A stretch of DNA of 64,000 nt from an uncultured Bacteroidota bacterium (GCA_963831005.1 CAWHOW010000045.1:9878-73877), one strand, 5' to 3'. Shown: positions 3,522 to 56,366, numbered from the stretch's first letter. A program made the numbers and translations. The notes: generated by a model from the sequence alone, not told the origin.

Positions 3522-3899
3522 CTGATGATTTGGTAGGCAATATTGAAGATAACTGAAACAACAATAATGATAATCTCTGCAAAAAGGATAACCCGACACT
3601 GATTGTTGATGATAACCACAGCTAATTTGATGATTACCGTAAAGTATTTGATGATAACCACCTGTAATTTGATAAATACCATACGGTAATTGATAAATAC
3701 TGTACGGTACTTAATGAATACTGTACGGTAATTGATAACAACCGTTCGGTACTTAATGAATACCGTTCGGTATTTGATGACAATAACTGCAAAAATGATA
3801 AATCGGCTTCAATTATTGATGACAACCGAAGCCGAATTGATAAATTACCACTGATTATTGATGACTATCGTTCGGTATTAAATAACAATAGCGCCATAC
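3522..3899. repeat. 21-bp-phased degenerate tandem array 1 (18 units, core TTGATGAtAAC)
   Basis: Units start at 3522, 3543 ... 3879 with exact 21-nt spacing and no indels. Examples: ttgatgataaccacagctaat, ttgatgattaccgtaaagtat, ttgataaatactgtacggtac. The core contains TGA TGA TAA, so all + frames are closed; the longest - ORF is 63 aa. Confidence 0.85.
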
Positions 3900-3920
3900 T
3901 TTAAAAATATGGCGCTATTG
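3886..3920. terminator. strong hairpin (13-bp stem), possible terminator
   Basis: caatagcgccata / tatggcgctattg around the loop ctttaaaaa, with modest T-rich sequence on both sides. It could terminate the minus-strand gene 4070..4741 or a plus-strand transcript of array 1. Confidence 0.45.
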
Positions 3921-3969
3921 TTTACGAATATATCTTAAAAAGAAATGAGTGTATTTAAACAGAAGCCTC

Positions 3970-18171: not shown

Positions 18172-18675
18172 ATGAGCAAACTTACATTTTTAATTATTTT
18201 TTGTTTTGCTTGTACTTTTATTCAGGCACAAACAGCAGATGAATATGTAAAAAATGGTAATGCAAAATTATTACTAAATAATTATACGGAAGCAATAGAA
18301 GATTACAATAAAGCGATAGAAATTGATCCAGAGAATGCAAAGGCATACTTCGGTCGTGGTTATGCAAAGATAAAGTTAAGCGATTATACAGGTGCAATAT
18401 CAGATAACACCAAAGCAATAGAAATTAACCCTGAGGATGCATGGACTTACTGCTGTCGTGGTAATGCAAAAGTTAATATGGGCGATTACACGGGAGCAAT
18501 AGTAGATTTCGACAAAGCGATAGAGATAAGCCCGAATTTTGATGTGGCATACATCAATCGTGGTGTTGCAAAGTTTAGTCTTAGTGATAAAGAAGGTGCT
18601 TGTTTAGACTGGAATAAAGCAGAAGATCTTGGTTACAGCGCTGCTTATGATGTTATAAATAAATATTGCCGTTAA
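18172..18675 (+). CDS. secreted tetratricopeptide-repeat protein
   Basis: Signal peptide followed by four TPR units (Y..A..DY.KAIEI.P..A.AY..RG). Confidence 0.85.
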   Translation: MSKLTFLIIFCFACTFIQAQTADEYVKNGNAKLLLNNYTEAIEDYNKAIEIDPENAKAYFGRGYAKIKLSDYTGAISDNTKAIEINPEDAWTYCCRGNAKVNMGDYTGAIVDFDKAIEISPNFDVAYINRGVAKFSLSDKEGACLDWNKAEDLGYSAAYDVINKYCR

Positions 18676-19110: not shown

Positions 19111-19211
19111 GTAAATTGAAACAAATAACAAAAGGATTTTTTCCTGAAAAACGAGTAAATCAACAAGATGCAACAAAAGAATCCCATACCAAAGCAAGAG
19201 TATTCCGTCGC

Positions 19212-19841
19212 CTCGTCTGACATCACGCTCAGCTTGTTTAGTAAATTGGCCGCCTCGTCTAGCGTAACGACCACTTCATTAAGTACGATGCCCACGTCAT
19301 ATAGCGAGACGACCAACACGTTTTGCAAGACGCCCACATCGTTTAGTACGGTGTCCATATCATTGAGCAAAATGCCCATCTTGTTAAGCACGACGCCGAA
19401 AACATTTTACATGATGCCCGCATCATTGAGTATAATGACCACTTCGTGGAGTACGATGCCCGACTTGTTCGGCTCAATGTCCGACTATTTGAGCATGATA
19501 CCTACGTTATTGGTTATAAAGCCCGCATCATTTAGTGTAACTATCAAGTCGTTAAGTACGATGCCCGCTGTGTTCAGTATGGCGACCACCTCGTTGAGTA
19601 TGACGCCGTTCGCGTTGGGCACGACACCCATCACGTTTAGCATGATGCCCATCACGTTTAGCACAATGCCGAACACGTTTAGCACGACGCCCATCACGCT
19701 GAGCACGACGCCCATCACGTTGAGTATGACGCTCATCACGTTGAGTATGACGCTCATCACGTTGAGCACGACGCTCATCATGTTTAGCACGACGCCCATC
19801 ACGTTGAGCATGATGCCGAACACGTTGGGCGCGATACTAAA
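19212..19841 (+). repeat. 21-bp-phased degenerate tandem array 2 (30 units, consensus cacgttgagcacgacgcccat), embedded in open ORF 19168..19926
   Basis: Units at 19212 + 21n with no indels. The right-hand units are near-identical (19716 and 19737 are identical) and the left-hand units are strongly diverged. One + frame is open for 252 codons from ATG 19168, with heptads such as TPITLST. Confidence 0.9.
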
Positions 19842-19911
19842 CGACCCCGCCGTCGGGAAAATAGTGCCGGGCAAGCGGAACATTAACCTGAATTATTATT
19901 CACGAGTTATA

Positions 19912-20056
19912 AAATCTAAATTCTAATTTCTAAACTCTAAATGAATTCCAATGAACCAAATGCTAAATTTAAAACAACTTCAATTAATACTGTTTGAAAC
20001 ATTGAAATTTTGAATTTTAATATTGTTTAGGATTTAGAGCTTCGTTCTTAGGATTT
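19912..20056. repeat. long AT-rich imperfect palindromic element (ctaaat...atttag family), copy 1
   Basis: Left arm aaatctaaattctaatttctaaactctaaat, right arm tttaggatttagagcttcgttcttaggattt. Related to the element at 31012..31130. Confidence 0.7.
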
Positions 20057-27838: not shown

Positions 27839-28762
<924 letters not shown>

Positions 28763-28800
28763 GTTCATTAAGTTATAATAACAATTTAACAATTAAAGAT

Positions 28801-30564
28801 ATGAAAACAAAAATCTTAATTATCGTATTACTGGTAACCGTTTACCGTTTACTGATTACCGATTACTGTTTTGCTCAAAACAACGTAGGTATCAATACAT
28901 CGGGCTCAACGCCCAACAGTTCAGCCATACTCGATTTGAACACGGGCAATACTTTTACAAGCCCTAATGGTAAAGGATTACTGATACCGTGTATGAACAC
29001 AGCAAGTATGAATGCCATCGTTTCGCCTGTTAACGGTCTTATAATTTTTAATACCGATTGCGAAACAATAAATTATTACAACGGAACCACCTGGATTGCC
29101 ATTGGCAATGGAAGCGGCATATCAGCGCCAGGAGCTATCACAGGCAGCACATCACCGGCTTGCAATGCTACAGGCATTCCTTATTCCATTGCAGCGGTTA
29201 CAGGAGCAACCGGCTATAACTGGACAGTACCAACAGGTGCAACAGTAGCCACAGGACAGGGTACTACCGCCACCACGGTAAACTTCGGGGCTGTTTCGGG
29301 CAATGTATGCGTATCAGCAAGCAATGCCTGCGGAACAAGCGCACCTTCATGCGTTACAGTTACTCTTCCGGGACCTGCCCAACCCAGCGCTATAACAGGC
29401 ACAAGCCCTGTATGCCAGGGTGATAACGGGGATGCTTATTCAGTAACTAATGTAGGCGGGGTAACATATACATGGACATATTCTGGCACAGGTTATACAC
29501 AAGCTTCCGGCGGAACCACCAACTCTATTACTGCCAACTTTTCCGCCTCTGCCACTTCCGGCACACTTACCGTTACCCCAAGCAATGCCTGCGGCAGTGG
29601 TACACCACAAACCTTGGCTATTACGGTGAACGCCGTACCCGCAGCCCCCACAGCAGGAACTAATACACCCTCACAAACCCAGGTTGTATGGAATTGGAAC
29701 ACCTCCAGCGGAGCAACAGCCTATTACTATAATACAGTGAATAATTTTGGTACAGCCACCAGCAATGGGGCAAGTACTTCCTACACCCAAACAGGACTGA
29801 CCTGCAATACAGCTTATACCCTATATATATGGGCTTATAATAGTTGTGGAAATTCCACTGCCACTACATTAACACAAACCACTTCTGCTTGTTGTACACC
29901 AAGTGTTGTAACAATAAGCACGCTCACTCAAACAACCACATGTAATGGGACAAACACTATTGTAGCGTGGACTGGTTATGGTTCTACCACTTGGACTGTT
30001 CCCACCGGTGTAACCCTGGTTAATTACCTTGTTGTGGGCGGAGGTGGCGCTGCTGGAACCAGCCCGCCATGTTACTATGCTGGTGGTGGTGGTGGACAGG
30101 TTCTATCAGGAACATTAGCAGTATCTGGTAGTATAGCTTTAACAGTAGGGGCTGGAGGAACCGGAACGTCTTACGCAGGAAACCCGGGCGGGGTAAGTAG
30201 TTTCAGTTCAATATCTGCTTCTGGCGGACAAGGCGGACTATCTGGAGGTGCTACGGGAGGGACATGTGGCGATGGTGTGCATATCGGCGGTTCAGGAACA
30301 TGTAACCCAGGTGGTGGTGGTGGTGGTGGTGGTGCAAGTGCTAATGGCTCTAATGCACCCGGTGGTGGTATAGGTGGAGCAGGTGGGAATGGAGTGGCTT
30401 CGTCCATAACCGGGAGTTCGATTTATTACGGTGGTGGAGGTGAAGGTATTGGATCTACAGTAACAGGGAACGGGCCTGGTTTAGGGAGTATTGGTGGCGG
30501 CGGGTTTGCCGGTTCTCCCGGTTCAGGTGTAGGAAATTCTGGTACTGTAATAATATCGTATTAA
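28801..30564 (+). CDS. PKD-like / FN3 / glycine-rich-domain surface protein
   Basis: ATG 28801 gives a signal peptide. The N-terminal VGINTSGSTPNS..LLIP module is homologous to that of 27848..28762. Two PKD-like modules follow (ITG...C....Y.....G.T.Y.W), then an FN3-like segment and a GGGG-rich C-terminal domain (W.VP.GV..V.YLVVGGGGAAG). Confidence 0.75.
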   Translation: MKTKILIIVLLVTVYRLLITDYCFAQNNVGINTSGSTPNSSAILDLNTGNTFTSPNGKGLLIPCMNTASMNAIVSPVNGLIIFNTDCETINYYNGTTWIAIGNGSGISAPGAITGSTSPACNATGIPYSIAAVTGATGYNWTVPTGATVATGQGTTATTVNFGAVSGNVCVSASNACGTSAPSCVTVTLPGPAQPSAITGTSPVCQGDNGDAYSVTNVGGVTYTWTYSGTGYTQASGGTTNSITANFSASATSGTLTVTPSNACGSGTPQTLAITVNAVPAAPTAGTNTPSQTQVVWNWNTSSGATAYYYNTVNNFGTATSNGASTSYTQTGLTCNTAYTLYIWAYNSCGNSTATTLTQTTSACCTPSVVTISTLTQTTTCNGTNTIVAWTGYGSTTWTVPTGVTLVNYLVVGGGGAAGTSPPCYYAGGGGGQVLSGTLAVSGSIALTVGAGGTGTSYAGNPGGVSSFSSISASGGQGGLSGGATGGTCGDGVHIGGSGTCNPGGGGGGGGASANGSNAPGGGIGGAGGNGVASSITGSSIYYGGGGEGIGSTVTGNGPGLGSIGGGGFAGSPGSGVGNSGTVIISY

Positions 30565-38926: not shown

Positions 38927-39475
38927 GTTCACTCAGAAAAAGGGTACGTTCACCCAAAATTAGCATATGTTCACGAAGTTTAGTTGGTTTTCCTTGATTT
39001 CGCTGACGTTTTAATGTATTATTGTATCAAACAATCGTTCTTTAACATCCTGATGGTAGTACATTCCCCAAAGCAGGGAGCATTAATATCAGACGTACGT
39101 GTAGTAATTATATCCACGTGGGTAGTGTTTGTATCTACGTCTTCCTTTGCTGCTAGCACATCTTTCGTTACCAGAACTACGTTGTCAGTTACTGCAAAGA
39201 TAGCTTCATTAACAGGAGACAGGTCTTCAATAATGGAAGCTATGGCTTCAATAACTGCAGCTAAGGCTTCAGTAACTGCAAAGATGGCTTCAATAATGGC
39301 AGACAGGTCTTCCATAACTGATGCTACAACTTCAATAACTACAGCTATAATTTCAGTAACTGCGGCTATGACTTCAACAATTGCAGCTATGTCTTCAATC
39401 ACTGCCGCTGTACATACAACAACTGCCGCTATGGATAGCATAACTATTACGACCGCCAAAGATATTAATGTTGTG
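38927..39475 (+). repeat. 21-bp-phased degenerate tandem array 3 (about 26 units, consensus gcttcaataactgcagctaag)
   Basis: The best units lie at 39224..39412. Weak in-phase units run upstream as far as three GTTCAC motifs at 38927, 38948 and 38969 (spacing 21 and 21). The + ORF 38984..39502 (heptads ASITAAK, ASVTAKM) and a - ORF are both open. Confidence 0.85.
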
Positions 39476-39544
39476 ATTTACTGTAATATAACCATCGCTT
39501 AAGTAAAATTAATTAAAGTATTAACAATTAAAAAAACTAAAAAA

Positions 39545-51613: not shown

Positions 51614-54094
51614 ATGACAAAGAATATCATATTATCATTATTTATAATAATTGTGTCTGGCGGGGTGGCGATGTCGCAGAATGTGCTTAGCGGCAGGGTT
51701 AGCGACTTTCGAAGTGGAGAGTCACTTCCGGGAGTTACTGTTTACATTCCCGACTTGAAAACAGGAGCAATTACAGATACTACAGGGCTTTATGAAATAA
51801 CCAATCTCCCTAAAACAAAAGTGCTTGTCCAGGTAAGTTTTCTTGGATATAAAACTCTTAATCGTTTCATTGACTTAAAAAATACTAATTCGATGGACTT
51901 CAAAATGGAAGAATCTGTTGCGGAAATGAACACAGTGGTAGTTACGGGAATATCAAGCGCTACTGAAATGAAAAAAGAACCTGTTCCCATTGTTGCTATC
52001 GACAGAAAAGAAATAGATCAGGGTATCAGCACAAATATAATTGATGCTATTGCTAATCTGCCCGGAGTTAGTGCAGTTACTACCACGCCCAATGTTTCGA
52101 AACCTTTTATTCATGGTCTTGGTTATAACCGTGTGCTTACTTTGGTCGATGGTGTTCGCCAGGAAGAACAGCAGTGGGGCGATGAGCATGGCGTGGAAAT
52201 GGATGAGTATGCCACCGACAGGATAGAAGTGGTTAAAGGCCCGGCCAGTCTTATATATGGTTCCGATGCACTTGCCGGTGTTGTAAATCTTATTTCTGCA
52301 CCACCTGTACCTAATAATACTATAAAAGGAAATTTTCTTGCAGAATATCAAACTAATAATGGCCTGATTGGAAGCTCTGCTTCGCTTGCAGCAAATAAGA
52401 ATGGTGTTATCTGGGGAGGAAGAATATCTCATAAAGAAGCTACCAATTACCAGGACCCGATTGACGGTCGTGTGTTTGGTACAGCCTATAATGAATCGGA
52501 TGCAAACGGCTATGTGGGGTTAAATAAGAAGTGGGGTTATTCTCATCTTAACTTTTCTCTTTTTGATGACCAGCCTGAAATACCTGATGGCAGCCGCGAT
52601 TCAGCAACACATAAGTTTACAAAACAAATAACGGAAGCTGATACAGCAAGGCCAATTGTTTCCAATTCTGAATTAAAATCATACAAGATCACTCCCCTGC
52701 ATCAGCATGTGCAGCATTTCAGCATTGCATCGCTGAATAATTTTATTATTGGTTCTGGTAAGCTTGAGGTAAATGTTGGCTGGCAGCAAAGCGACCACAG
52801 GGAATACAGTCATCCGCAGGCAGCCGATACTCCAGGGCTTGACCTTACTTTGAATACGTTGACTTATGATATAAAGTATTTATTGCCTGAATCGAAAGGA
52901 TGGGAAACAACAGTAGGTGTAAACGGCATGGAGCAGATCAATAACACAGATAAAGCCACTGAATTCATTATTCCTGATTATAACCTTTTCGAAATAGGCC
53001 CTTTTGCACATGTAAAAAAGTCATTCGATAAATTGGAATTAAGTGCAGGAGCAAGGTACGACAATCGTTTCTTTAATAATAAACAAATGTTTACCAATAC
53101 AAATCCCTCAACAGGTTTTGACGAGCAGGTTGCCTTGCCTGATACTGCAGGAGCTAAACAAACTTTCTCGAATTACAAGCACACCTTTTCGGGCGCTTCG
53201 GGCAGCATGGGCGCTACTTATAATATTTCGGATAAATTCTTTATTAAAGCTAATGTTGCTCGTGGTTTCAGGGCGCCTAATATTTCCGAGTTATCGGCAA
53301 ATGGTGTGCATCCCGGAACAGCTATGTACCAGATCGGCAATCCCGATTTTAAACCTGAGTTCAGCCTGCAGGAAGATATTGGCCTTTTCTTTTCTTCAAA
53401 GTACGCTAATGGAAGCGTTGAATTGTTCAACAATAATATAGATAACTATATTTTCAACCAGCGATTACTTAAACACGATGGGCAGGATTCGAACTACACA
53501 AGCGAGATACCTTATTTTAAGTTCGAGCAATCGCATGCCGAACTTTATGGGGGAGAAGTAAGTTTTGATATCCACCCACATCCTTGGGACTGGCTGCATT
53601 TCGAGAATGAATTGTCGGTAATTTATGCTGAGAATTTAGGTGGAAATGGAATACATGTAACCGACAGTTCGAAGTATCTGCCGTTTATTCCACCTTTGCA
53701 CTGGCATTCTGAACTAAGAGCTAATGTGAAGAAAAAGTTTAAACATTTCTCTTCTTTTTATGCTAAAGTTGAAATGGATTATTTTGCAACGCAGAATAGG
53801 GCTTTTCTGGCCAACAATACCGAAACCGTTACGCCGGGCTACACATTGATAGGCGCAGGAATAGGCGCCGATATTACCAACAGGTTGGGTAAAGTGCTGT
53901 TCAGCTTTGATATTTCGGCAAATAACCTGGCTAATGTAGCTTACCAGTCGAACATGAGCAGGTTGAAATACATGGATTTTTATGTTAACCACGAAGGAGA
54001 ACCTGTAAGCGTATCCGGTCCTGGGAGTGGTATTTACAATATGGGAAGGAATATTGGCTTTAAAATTATTGTTCCTATCAATAGCAAATACTAA
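51614..54094 (+). CDS. TonB-dependent receptor with N-terminal carboxypeptidase-regulatory-like domain
   Basis: The pattern SGRVSD..SGESLPGVTVYI, a plug (VVVTG..., IEVVKGPASLIYGSDALAGVVNLI), a large barrel and a C-terminal aromatic residue. Confidence 0.9.
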   Translation: MTKNIILSLFIIIVSGGVAMSQNVLSGRVSDFRSGESLPGVTVYIPDLKTGAITDTTGLYEITNLPKTKVLVQVSFLGYKTLNRFIDLKNTNSMDFKMEESVAEMNTVVVTGISSATEMKKEPVPIVAIDRKEIDQGISTNIIDAIANLPGVSAVTTTPNVSKPFIHGLGYNRVLTLVDGVRQEEQQWGDEHGVEMDEYATDRIEVVKGPASLIYGSDALAGVVNLISAPPVPNNTIKGNFLAEYQTNNGLIGSSASLAANKNGVIWGGRISHKEATNYQDPIDGRVFGTAYNESDANGYVGLNKKWGYSHLNFSLFDDQPEIPDGSRDSATHKFTKQITEADTARPIVSNSELKSYKITPLHQHVQHFSIASLNNFIIGSGKLEVNVGWQQSDHREYSHPQAADTPGLDLTLNTLTYDIKYLLPESKGWETTVGVNGMEQINNTDKATEFIIPDYNLFEIGPFAHVKKSFDKLELSAGARYDNRFFNNKQMFTNTNPSTGFDEQVALPDTAGAKQTFSNYKHTFSGASGSMGATYNISDKFFIKANVARGFRAPNISELSANGVHPGTAMYQIGNPDFKPEFSLQEDIGLFFSSKYANGSVELFNNNIDNYIFNQRLLKHDGQDSNYTSEIPYFKFEQSHAELYGGEVSFDIHPHPWDWLHFENELSVIYAENLGGNGIHVTDSSKYLPFIPPLHWHSELRANVKKKFKHFSSFYAKVEMDYFATQNRAFLANNTETVTPGYTLIGAGIGADITNRLGKVLFSFDISANNLANVAYQSNMSRLKYMDFYVNHEGEPVSVSGPGSGIYNMGRNIGFKIIVPINSKY

Positions 54095-54252
54095 GATATT
54101 ATTTACACAAGGGAGTATATAATATAGAAGGCTGCCAGGCTGCCAGACAAGGGTTTTTTAACATTTCACGGCGAGGCCGAACAGAAGAACAAGTTTCCCT
54201 CTATGTTTTGGCCTCCTCTTATTGGAATAAATCTTTTGCACCGGGGTTCATT

Positions 54253-54924
54253 GAAGTTTCTTTGAACAGTTCAGCAGTTGCTGGGAAGAGCTACGCATGT
54301 GCGTGGAAGAGTTCAGCAGTTTCTGCGAAGAGTTTAGCAATTGCCGCGGATGTCCACGCATGTGCCGGGAACAGTTTGGCAGTTGCCGCGAAGAGTTTAG
54401 CAGTCTCCGCGAAGGTCGTGGCAGTTGCCGCGAAGATCGTGGCGGTTGCCGCGAACAGTTTGGCGGTTGCCGCGAAGAGTTTGGCTGTTGCCGCGAAGAG
54501 TTTGGCAATTGCAGCGAACAGTTTGGCGGTTGCCGCGAAGAGTTTGGCAGTTGCCGCGAAGATCGTGGCGGTTGCCGCGAACAGTTTAGCATGTGTGTGG
54601 AACAGTTCAGCAGTTGCTGGGAAGAGCTACGCATGTGCGTGGAAGAGTTCAGCAGTTTCTGCGAAGAGTTTAGCAATTGCCGCGGATGTCCACGCATGTG
54701 CGTGGAACAGTTTGGCAGTTGCCGCGAAGAGTTATCCCTGTGCGTGGAACAGTTTAGCAATTGCTGCGAAGAGTTATCCCTATGCGTGGAAGAGCTACGC
54801 ATGTGCGTGCAAGAGTTATCCCTGTGCGTGGAAGAGTTTGGCCGTTGCCGCGAAGAGCCACGCATGTGCGTGGAAGAGTTCCCCCTGTGCGTGGAACAGT
54901 TTGGCAATTGCCACGAGGAGTATT
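54253..54924 (+). repeat. 21-bp-phased degenerate tandem array 4 (32 units; subtypes gcagttgccgcgaagagtttg and gcatgtgcgtggaagagttca)
   Basis: Units at 54253 + 21n with no indels. The 102-nt block 54264..54365 is repeated exactly at 54600..54701, an offset of 336 bp or 16 units. Two + frames and one - frame stay open for more than 215 codons. Confidence 0.9.
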
Positions 54925-55181
54925 GCAGAGGACAAATTTTCTATACTTATATATTAAACTTTGCTTGGTTTTTCCTCAAAATTAGTTGCTTTGTCCTCAA
55001 AATTAATACCCGAAATGGATAAATAAACAGGCTTTCCTGATAAAGGGTATGCCAGTAACAATGCGGAAGGTGAAAAATGGAAAACCGGATATGCACGAAT
55101 GAATAGGAAGCAGGAGTCAGAAGGCAACGTTCAGTCAACAACGAAAATAAAATTGGAAACTGCGGACTGAAGACTGAAAAA

Positions 55182-55790
55182 CTATTTCTTCTTTATGCCA
55201 TAAAGTTCGAGCAGCTTTGCAACATATTTGCCGATGATATCAAATTCGATATTTACTACTGTATTCTTTTTGAAGTTGTGGAAATTGGTTACTTCCTGAG
55301 TAAAAGGAATAATTGCCACCGAAAAAGTATCCTTGCCGGAATCTACCACTGTAAGGCTTACACCATTTACAGATATTGATCCTTTGGCAACAGTGATGTT
55401 ACCCACTTTAGGGTTATATTTAAAGGAATAAGCCCAGCTGCCATCGGTTTCTTTAACGCCAATGCAGGTGGCGGTCTGGTCAACATGTCCCTGAACGATA
55501 TGCCCGTCAATCCGGCCTTCCATCTTCATTGACCTTTCAAGGTTAACTTCATATCCGGGTTTCCAGGTCCCGAGGTTTGTTTTCTTCAAAGTCTCATCAA
55601 CAGCAGTAACCACATATTGATTTTTCTTGGGAAACACTTTAACCACAGTAAGGCAAACGCCATCGTGGCACATGCTCTGGTCTATTTTCAAATCTTTGCC
55701 GAAATGGGCTTCGATAGTGATGTGAATATTTCCTTTTTCTTTTTCAATCTTTACAACCTTTCCGGTTGCTTCAACTATTCCTGTAAACAT
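55182..55790 (-). CDS. ribE: riboflavin synthase
   Basis: MFTGIVEATGKV start, an internal duplication with GDSI.VNGVSLTV-type motifs (GSISVNGVSLTVV), 202 aa. Confidence 0.92.
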   Translation of the reverse strand: MFTGIVEATGKVVKIEKEKGNIHITIEAHFGKDLKIDQSMCHDGVCLTVVKVFPKKNQYVVTAVDETLKKTNLGTWKPGYEVNLERSMKMEGRIDGHIVQGHVDQTATCIGVKETDGSWAYSFKYNPKVGNITVAKGSISVNGVSLTVVDSGKDTFSVAIIPFTQEVTNFHNFKKNTVVNIEFDIIGKYVAKLLELYGIKKK

Positions 55791-55895
55791 TTTCTTTTTA
55801 TTTTTTATTTATTACTATTTAGATATAAAGGTATAAGGTATAAAGGGTATAGGGTGTATAAGGAATAAAATGATATAAGGCATAAAAGTTACAGG

Positions 55896-56366
55896 TTATA
55901 CAGGTGAAGAGTTAAAATTGTCGGTGTCTTTTCGCGACATTACATATTTAATATAACCATTTAGAGTTACTTTAGCATCTTCTATTAATGAAATGCCTTT
56001 GTCATAAATATCTTTGCTTATATATTCAAAGTCATAACTGGAAATGAGGTGATCTTTTAATTCATAAATAGAACCTCTTGATATGCGATAAAACTGTATT
56101 CCTTCCTGATAATGATAACGACCGTAGCCTTCAGCAATATTTGCTGTTCCACTCACACTGGCTTTACGGATTTGTGGATTAAGATTAAACTTTTCTTCTG
56201 CAGGAAGATAAGGAATAACTTCTTTATAAAAAAATAATTTCGCCAATCTTGCTTTTTTCCACGCATCAAGAGTAGTAAAATCTTTTTGGGCATTATATTT
56301 AATTAAATCATCTTCAACCTTAGAATTATTATTTTGCTCAAAGGAATATTTATCATTCTTTTTCAT
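55896..56366 (-). CDS. four-helix-bundle protein (23S rRNA intervening-sequence protein family)
   Basis: The C-terminal 110 aa match the family pattern (QIRKASVSGTANIAEGYGR....E..QF..ISRGSIYEL..HL). Has an N-terminal extension. Confidence 0.8.
   Translation of the reverse strand: MKKNDKYSFEQNNNSKVEDDLIKYNAQKDFTTLDAWKKARLAKLFFYKEVIPYLPAEEKFNLNPQIRKASVSGTANIAEGYGRYHYQEGIQFYRISRGSIYELKDHLISSYDFEYISKDIYDKGISLIEDAKVTLNGYIKYVMSRKDTDNFNSSPV

Follow-up and report, generated by a model that had tools for sequence, protein, structure and literature searches.

The REP/BIME repeats of enterobacteria can act on the 3' ends of mRNAs and can bind nucleoid proteins, and another kind of repeated DNA comprises the centromere-like and iteron arrays, for example sopC (12 x 43 bp), parC, and the plasmid iterons of 17-22 bp. 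Closest to the locus described here are the BrickBuilt elements of Porphyromonas gingivalis, in which a leader and a tail enclose a spacer-less array of 23-nt units (Klein et al. 2015, PMC4596501). These elements occur as 19 intergenic copies that share one unit and differ in copy number depending on the strain; long stem-loops are predicted for them, and they have no Rfam match and give rise to assembly gaps (PMC4596501).

In this study, we report a computational analysis of array D, a tandem repeat in a 64,000-nt stretch of DNA (hereafter the window) from an uncultured Bacteroidota bacterium. Judging from T9SS sorting domains and PorP/SprF, the window belongs to a Bacteroidota chromosome; besides the TonB receptor gene and ribE, the neighbors of the array are T9SS cargo genes and a 23S-IVP-like gene. 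Together with its flanks, the array makes up a previously undescribed 21-bp minisatellite with a conserved leader and tail, the closest kind to which is BrickBuilt, and array D is probably fast-changing repeated DNA, the center of a non-coding element composed of leader, array, and tail, not a gene.

Array D consists of 32 contiguous units of 21 nt each (672 bp) in the register 54253+21n, with 0 indels and 0 spacers (Table 1). The register had been described in an earlier note on this DNA, and it was recovered by unit cutting, by TRF (period 21, score 305), and by autocorrelation, in which identity reaches 0.66 at lag 21 and stays at 0.16-0.28 at all other lags from 1 to 24. Also confirmed was the interleaving of two unit subtypes, GCAGTTGCCGCG and GCATGTGCGTGG, to which we add a third variant, CCCTGTGCGTGG; across the whole array the variable half of the unit takes only ~3 variants. 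Unit 0 (54253-54273) is degenerate and resembles the leader, and the terminal unit, unit 31, is diverged. The GC content of the array is ~0.56 vs ~0.37 for the window. Pfam assignments of the neighbors agree with the location given in the earlier note, between a TonB-dependent receptor gene and the convergent ribE, and no partition, replication, or regulator gene adjoins the array. The leader blocks each occur once, with no further copy in the 64-kb window. Just past the tail lies a two-copy 21-nt repeat (family D2), and it is uncertain whether this repeat is part of the element; its copies read TAATTTTGAGG on the minus strand, a putative match to the Bacteroidota -7 promoter consensus, TAnnTTTG.

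Table 1. Features of array D, its flanks, and other period-21 arrays (positions counted from the first nucleotide of the window)
Feature	Coordinates	Strand	Remarks
Array D	54253..54924	+	32 units of 21 nt; unit 0 degenerate; GCAGTTGCCGCG, GCATGTGCGTGG, and CCCTGTGCGTGG mixed in units 1-5 and 16-31
Homogeneous run	54379..54588	+	Ten GCNGTTGCCGCGAAsAGTTTG-type units (units 6-15, GCAGTTGCCGCG type)
102-nt exact block, copy 1	54264..54365	+	Identical to 54600-54701
102-nt exact block, copy 2	54600..54701	+	Offset 336 nt = 16.00 units
Units 20-31	54673..54924	+	Colinear unit by unit with the entire 12-unit array of L002/L198/L199/L200
Leader, non-repetitive	54157..54252	+	Conserved with the element of the other species
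Leader conserved blocks	54157-54177 (TTTAACATTTCACRGCGAGGC) and 54222-54259	+	~45 nt between them diverged
Tail, short conserved flank	54925..54950	+	GCAGrggACAAATT..CTTAT.TAT.AA; homology with L002 stops after the tail
Two-copy 21-nt repeat just past the tail	54965..55005		Family D2, 90% identity
Open frame, AVAAKSL heptads	54208-54957	+	TTG start
Open frame, CVEEFSL heptads	54297-55022	+	ATG start
Open frame, NSSRQLP heptads	54248-54907	-	Open
TonB-dependent receptor gene	51614..54094	+	Upstream neighbor, outside the element; Pfam Plug, TonB_dep_Rec_b-barrel, CarbopepD_reg_2
ribE (riboflavin synthase)	55182..55790	-	Convergent downstream neighbor, outside the element; Pfam Lum_binding x2
Array A	about 3585-3900		Period 21
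Array B	19168-19840		Period 21
Array C	39101-39460		Period 21

Protein searches with the three open frames as queries pointed to one relative lineage only: the AVAAKSL frame retrieved two called ORFs, P0001 (carried by contig L002) and P0002, the sole match of the CVEEF frame was P0002, and the minus frame had no match. The same 12-unit element was found in three more assemblies (P0027-29 on L198-L200). In L002, the leader and unit 0 together measure 117 nt, as they do in the window, with 27 differences and 0 indels between the two; the 12-unit array is followed by the same short tail, and the DNA beyond the leader and tail is unrelated to that of the window. The locus in the other species is arranged as rpe, array, and hypothetical gene, and no link was found between the genes that follow the L002 array and array B. 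Each of window units 20-25, 27, 30, and 31 has one counterpart in L002 (units 1-6, 8, 11, and 12, respectively), with 24 differences over 189 nt, and identity of the element across the two species is 77-87%, while their other intergenic DNA is unalignable. Among the four assemblies of the other species, the element has an identical length, no long exact internal repeat, and one variable column in ~400 nt, vs eight in ~460 nt of the flanks (Fisher p = 0.03-0.04). This low variability within a population is a hint of constraint on the element, and taken with the identity between species it would fit a sequence-level function.

Two checks on relatives proposed in the earlier note had mixed outcomes. 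Copy number does differ by whole units between the species (32 in the window vs 12), but not among the four assemblies of the other species. The refuting condition of the note, absence or lack of conservation in close relatives, gives a mixed picture: the nearest relative found has a different 21-nt array at the locus, and the element itself is conserved at a different locus of another species. An element family old enough to be common, unit by unit, to two species at different loci has either moved or been maintained independently of its neighbors, and its mobility is putative. Further searches for the element were negative: the leader pattern was absent from JGI metagenomes and a two-unit pattern from viral contigs, plasmid and phage records had no similarity to the array, and a scan of genome contigs with the 16-mer TGTGCGTGGAASAGTT, a pattern that is too short, returned 115 isolated chance matches and 0 arrays.

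The likeness to BrickBuilt extends over most aspects of the organization of the element. Both are hosted by Bacteroidota and consist of a spacer-less array of imperfect direct units of ~20 nt flanked by a non-repetitive leader and tail, which in the case of D are conserved in a comparison of two species rather than of copies within one genome. Both are intergenic, adjoin housekeeping genes, differ in copy number between lineages, have dyad symmetry with predicted stem-loops, and lack an Rfam match; in both cases short-read assemblies break and annotation pipelines call spurious ORFs. The differences are that the D unit has 21 nt vs 23 nt and does not match the BrickBuilt unit at <=3 mismatches, that one copy of D is seen in 64 kb, that it has two to three interleaved unit subtypes, and that the other arrays of its genome are unrelated in both units and flanks, while a single unit is common to all 19 BrickBuilt copies. 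In addition, the leader and tail of D are without detectable IS5-like terminal inverted repeats: the best inverted alignment of leader and tail scores 22 in the window (95th percentile of shuffles) and 17 in L002 (the median), and the two best matches are at positions that are not homologous. Near the element, GAGACCTTTGCA is absent and no target-site duplications were found. The absence of terminal inverted repeats and target-site duplications leaves mobility unproven, and as terminal inverted repeats were not found we do not file the element as a member of BrickBuilt.

Other described repeats resemble array D in fewer respects. With bacterial VNTRs and intergenic minisatellites it shares concerted evolution of units, whole-unit gain, loss, and conversion, and higher-order blocks, but its length (32 units, 672 bp) and GC content are unusually high for its genome, its flanks are conserved across species, and its clade has an excess of exact 21-nt periods. 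REP/BIME elements likewise consist of short palindromic units that cluster in intergenic DNA, in many cases where two genes converge; however, REP sequences form hairpins of ~35-40 nt that alternate in orientation and are partnered by a RAYT transposase, whereas the units of D are direct and 21 nt long and no RAYT gene was seen, and a REP-like reading fails on these defining features. Like iteron and centromere-like arrays, D is made of direct repeats in helical phase (21 bp) with internal dyad symmetry, but it is chromosomal, lies between housekeeping genes with no par or rep genes near it and no plasmid similarity, and has many more copies than iteron sets. A CRISPR or other repeat-spacer array was rejected, the units being contiguous, with ~3 variants of the variable half and no cas-like genes seen among the scanned ORFs of the window. 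A heptanucleotide, STRR-like substructure within the 21-mer was rejected as well, identity at lag 7 (0.23) and lag 14 (0.25) being at background.

The internal duplications of the array provided insights into how it changes. The 102-nt duplication reported in the earlier note is an exact match, in phase, and not extendable by one base on either side, and the edges of the block are unique unit variants. The homogeneous run contains a further exact repeat, 43 nt long (54419-54461 = 54545-54587, offset 6.00 units), and no out-of-phase exact repeats of >=38 nt were found within the array, all offsets being multiples of 21. Since the exact internal repeats are all in phase, unequal recombination or gene conversion is indicated, and the array probably evolves by recombination in register and by conversion. 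In such a mechanism, unequal in-register recombination would lead, along with slippage during replication and conversion of one unit by another, to growth, shrinkage, and reshuffling of the array, and the 102-nt copy 16 units away, the 43-nt copy 6 units away, and the ten-unit run would be the footprints of these events. Given that units 20-31 pair with the 12 units of the relative, the 20 additional units of the window, which comprise the duplicated five-unit block and the run of units 6-15, appear lineage-specific, and the run itself, missing from the 12-unit relative, is probably a lineage-specific expansion.

The units themselves have a potential for pairing. When they follow ...CCAC, units of the GCATGTGCGTGG type (b-type) are predicted to fold on both strands into a 6-bp hairpin with an energy of -9.8 to -11.6 kcal/mol, and the other subtype contains the loop-less palindrome GGCARTTGCC. 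The dyad cores GGCARTTGCC and CACGCA-TG-TGCGTG are present in 5-6 copies each, in the array only, vs a chance expectation of 0.1-0.25. As parts of a non-coding minisatellite, the unit cores GGCARTTGCC and CCACGC-ATGT-GCGTGG would heavily pair the 3' regions of convergent read-through transcripts and would also present phased palindromes on the DNA, and these effects on transcripts or DNA may be weak or neutral.

The same cores bring up the possibility that array D is a phased protein-binding array, each unit offering a dyad site for a dimeric DNA-binding protein. The predicted sites recur every two helical turns and would therefore all lie on the same face of the helix, and the array could act as a titration or nucleoid-structuring site, as an insulator of the convergent genes, or as a centromere- or iteron-like site. 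This deserves consideration, though we regard it as unlikely. In its favor, the palindromic cores are above chance and restricted to the array, the 21-bp register is strict through 32 units, period 21 is in excess in the clade among arrays unrelated in sequence, array A likewise has a conserved half-unit and palindromes, and the element varies less than its flanks within a population. Against these observations, no partition, replication, or regulator gene is adjacent and plasmids and phages have no similar sequence; the cores are absent from promoters elsewhere in the 64 kb, leaving no visible regulon; the relative tolerates a 22-nt unit, and one array of another relative (L130b) has a 1-nt register shift; and loop-less short palindromes can occur by chance in a 21-mer. 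In an exploratory wedge-model calculation, units of D were no more curved than shuffled units, which also speaks against phased binding. By eye, neither a DnaA-box nor a Bacteroidota-promoter reading of the units gave a convincing match.

The recurrence of the period itself was analyzed in the window and in related genomes. The window has four period-21 arrays (A, B, C, and D), whose units and flanks are unrelated, and none at neighboring periods; no flanks are common to arrays A-D. Of the 34 arrays in 80 loci retrieved via the TonB receptor (837 kb), 7 have period 21 and 10 have period 7; of the 28 arrays in 817 kb of unrelated genomes, a control set made up of the chance matches of the TGTGCGTGGAASAGTT scan, 0 and 4 do, respectively. 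True 7-nt arrays exist near array D and in relatives. The similarity of the nearest relative found (L118; TonB receptor 89% aa, 83% nt identity) to the window ends exactly at the receptor stop codon, at 54094, and ~110 nt past the stop a different 21-nt array with the unit GATTTTGCGGCATTTTCTACA begins and reaches the contig end. At the corresponding spot, L119-L121 (receptor 72-80% aa) have no array, and the 'period 42' feature that follows the TonB orthologue in L122 includes an inverted copy and belongs to another class of repeat. Four 21-nt arrays are present within 17 kb of L130, adjoining pheT, radA, and other housekeeping genes; three of them have a common tail of ~55 nt, 96% identical between two, while their units differ, and in one array the units grade from the type of another array near the tail to amplified derived variants. 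The common tail and differing units of the L130 arrays imply that arrays of common descent can quickly lose unit similarity and keep unit length. A shared ancestral 21-nt element would be the simplest explanation of the same period with different sequences, common ancestry being evident only for the three L130 arrays. Similarity of units between arrays is not significant after multiple testing, the units of D and L118 matching at 12 of 21 positions (p = 0.045 uncorrected).

An alternative is that a dedicated process or constraint in this clade gives rise to, or keeps, arrays with a period of exactly 21 bp (two helical turns) irrespective of how the unit reads, through a phased DNA-binding or DNA-wrapping protein or through templated duplication, with array D, whose leader and units are conserved across species, as a functional member of that system instead of drifting junk. 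The excess of period 21, the different array of L118 at the same spot, and the low polymorphism of the element would speak for such a constraint, to which we nevertheless assign only a small probability. No de novo two-copy 21-nt duplications were found outside the arrays at >=88% identity, and the array-B ORF, used as query in an exhaustive HMMER search, matched only unrelated ORFs of low-complexity heptads, some of them eukaryotic.

It is quite improbable that the leader, array, and tail are transcribed as a structured non-coding RNA or 3'-UTR module whose repeated hairpins stabilize the mRNAs of the neighbors or sequester an RNA-binding protein. The predicted fold of the plus-strand array RNA (-320.7 kcal/mol) lies far beyond its shuffles, with z = -6.6 compared with z = -3.1 for the minus strand (20 shuffles each), but any tandem array of partly palindromic units out-folds its shuffles. 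The stable 6-bp hairpins of the b-type units on both strands and the conserved leader blocks would suit such an RNA, as would two minus-strand boxes (54977-55005) that face the array and resemble the promoter consensus TAnnTTTG. On the other side, the fold of the leader is no better than that of shuffles and differs between the two species, one long stem of the window leader being degraded without compensation in L002, and neither a sigma-70-like promoter nor an intrinsic terminator was detected. Rfam 15 gave nothing at the gathering score in the window and, at E <= 1, a chance miRNA match only (22.5 bits vs a threshold of 197), and a tRNA search found none. For BrickBuilt, segments with promoter activity have been reported along with predicted long stem-loops (PMC4596501), a parallel that counts toward an RNA role.

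The full length of the array and its 102-nt duplication are based on one assembly, and the array could be real while its length, the ten-unit run, or the duplication stem from mis-assembly, which we judge very unlikely. The short-read contigs L001 and L118 do break inside their arrays, and the independent relatives have only 12 units without a long exact internal repeat. However, the Logan contig L001, which derives from another run, is identical to the window throughout ribE and the tail and in the last ~2.5 units before it breaks, and the independent assemblies corroborate the leader, the tail, and the last 12 units, units 20-31 being colinear with the 12-unit array that four other assemblies recovered independently. 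The duplicated block is flanked by unique unit variants and is perfectly in phase, and an expansion error would not normally yield diverged adjacent units.

Three long frames are open across the array, two on the plus strand and one on the minus strand, as the earlier note had stated, and the AVAAKSL frame has no ATG, only a TTG, again in agreement with it. The note had further taken the synonymous variation of the GCN codon as a hint of coding in the plus frame from 54208. This hint is not supported. In the colinear units, pN/pS is 0.65 for the AVAAKSL frame, in which 7 differences are synonymous and 17 non-synonymous, compared with 1.19 for the CVEEFSL frame and 1.08 for the open minus frame; over the three open frames the values are 0.65-1.3, with small counts (24 differences) and no frame distinctive, and the values of 0.42 and 0.96 belong to frames with stop codons. 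In the leader, pN/pS is about 0.3-0.8 with no distinctive frame, the AVAAKSL frame having 0.82 (27 differences). With a codon-usage log-likelihood trained on 26 long ORFs of the window that were taken as genes, the best frame of D scores -0.02 per codon, which is outside the range of 43 chunks of real genes (0.27 +/- 0.06, minimum 0.13) and within that of wrong frames (-0.60 +/- 0.29, maximum 0.06). No 3-nt periodicity is present in array D, its autocorrelation being flat at lags 3, 6, 9, and so on, whereas arrays B and C are periodic.

The start of the frame is not conserved either: the TTG of the window aligns with TTA in L002, and the ATG of the L002 ORF sits in DNA without a counterpart in the window, and the N-termini are unrelated. 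P0002 differs from P0001 by one residue over the first 104 residues and then passes inside the array from ...SYPCAWKS in the CAWKS frame to ...CEEFSLCVEQF in the CVEEF frame, a change explained by a 22-nt unit, one converted to the other subtype and bearing one extra base. At E <= 1, the AVAAKSL frame has no Pfam match and the other frames gave sub-threshold noise only. The one point favoring coding is a mild coding-like bias of third positions in the AVAAKSL frame, which hold 12 of the 24 interspecies differences; in the array, too, third positions of this frame have a summed column entropy of 7.3, compared with 5.5 and 4.5 for the remaining two, and columns 3 and 9, those of the GCN wobble, rank among the most variable. 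Under the non-coding explanation, the open frames would be an incidental product of a GC-rich unit that lacks stop codons.

A gene for an alanine-rich heptad-repeat protein in the plus frame from 54208 (AVAAKSL / ACAWKSS / PCAWNSL) is highly improbable, even though the frame is open for 291 codons (54085 to 54957), 21 nt equals seven codons, its wobble columns vary most, gene callers annotated it in five other assemblies (P0001 and P0027-29 among them), and array C of the same window looks coding by its codon usage: pN/pS of 0.65-0.82 from few changes is indistinguishable from 1, codon usage and periodicity are not those of genes, the start is not conserved and P0002 is frameshifted within the array, homologues without any Pfam match are confined to one lineage, and two further frames are equally open, as expected of a stop-free unit.

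In public assemblies, gene callers have annotated the array as a protein in several cases, and it also breaks short-read contigs; recognition of the locus as a non-coding minisatellite clears spurious 'hypothetical proteins' and makes it useful for strain typing. The case extends elements of the BrickBuilt type, with their leader, array, and tail, beyond Porphyromonas. Why arrays of unrelated sequence but with a period of exactly 21 bp accumulate in this clade is a testable question and the main point worth pursuing. If a protein or mechanism does set the 21-bp period, this would be new biology; if instead the arrays descend from one ancestor, they would be a case of concerted evolution that erases the sequence and keeps the unit length.

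The intergenic position downstream of the TonB-dependent receptor gene, which in the window holds the main 21-nt array D with its leader and tail, is occupied by a different 21-nt array in L118, the closest relative by this receptor, whose contig ends within the array. Strong curvature of the L118 array is predicted by an exploratory wedge model, the end-to-end/contour ratio being 0.15, and a ratio as low was obtained in 3% of shuffles. In another relative, L122, the repeat lies directly 3' of the TonB orthologue and differs in kind from both D and the L118 array; with it, three species carry repeats downstream of the same TonB receptor gene. Heptanucleotide-type repeats were also recorded in the window and in L118, L155 and L190. 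Arrays with a 7-nt period number 10 in the 837 kb from relatives, more than the 4 in 817 kb of control loci.

Coordinates of the repeats and associated features in the window and in loci of relatives
Sequence	Position	Strand	Feature
Window	3585-3900		Array A: 21-nt array, ~14 units, AT-rich
Window	3889-3925		Hairpin with 12-bp stem, after array A
Window	19168-19926		Array B: 32 diverged 21-nt units, perfect register
Window	39019-39502		Array C: 21-nt array, downstream of alaS
Window	39019-39459	minus	Array C ORF: IAAVIEA-type heptads, TTG start
Window	54965-55005		Two-copy 21-nt repeat, just past D tail
Window	55786-55903		GGTATAA-like heptanucleotide-type repeat, between ribE and 23S-IVP four-helix-bundle gene
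L118	3345-3420		Heptanucleotide-type run similar to the GGTATAA-like repeat, immediately after TonB stop
L118	3452-3698		21-nt array unrelated to D, GC 0.40
L122	4490-4800		Repeat of ~42-63-nt units (AAAAAACAGGCTGGTTTAAGTGCACTTTGCCGTTTTTCAC) with inverted copy
L130	3765-3820, 7795-7830, 11747-11800		Shared tail sites of arrays
L155	4728-5030		Heptanucleotide-type repeat
L190	16801-17146		CATTCAC heptanucleotide-type repeat

Each copy of the short repeat beyond the D tail reads TAATTTTGAGG on the minus strand, which fits the Bacteroidota -7 box TAnnTTTG, a putative promoter element; these boxes are directed into array D. The tail TGTCCTTTTTTTATTTCCCNGCATAAAAACCCNTTTTTGAGGCAATTTTCATC is common to three 21-nt arrays of the relative L130 whose units differ, and two of the three sit ~100-130 nt upstream of genes with a -7 box reading TATCTTTG; the motif at these sites is confined to the L130 genome. 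The units of array A combine a conserved half (TTGATRAnnAC) with a variable half that is frequently palindromic (e.g., TACCGTACGGTA and ACCGTTCGGT), and stop codons are present in all of its frames. From the hairpin region that follows, 17 bases (CCATACTTTAAAAATAT) were found again, exact, downstream of the D-like array of another species, L002.

Elsewhere in the window, the stretch 27848-30564 (local GC 0.55) holds a gene for a collagen-like GXY repeat protein (Pfam Collagen) and, after it, one for a PKD-like/glycine-rich protein. Both are neighbored by PorP/SprF and several T9SS-tail genes, and the repeats appear to be ordinary coding ones. The 102-nt tandem repeat of 2.4 copies within a TPR-repeat gene (Pfam TPR; 18281-18524) is ordinary.

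The first base of array B coincides exactly with an ATG, opening an ORF of 252 aa with xTFSTTP-type heptads. A 3-nt periodicity is present, but in codon usage (-0.04) the ORF does not resemble genes, and an exhaustive protein search with this ORF matched unrelated heptad ORFs only. In array C, 3-nt periodicity is clear, and codon usage is gene-like both in the minus-strand ORF (+0.46 per codon) and in the plus frame overlapping it (+0.31). The minus-strand ORF may be a real gene for a coiled-coil protein.
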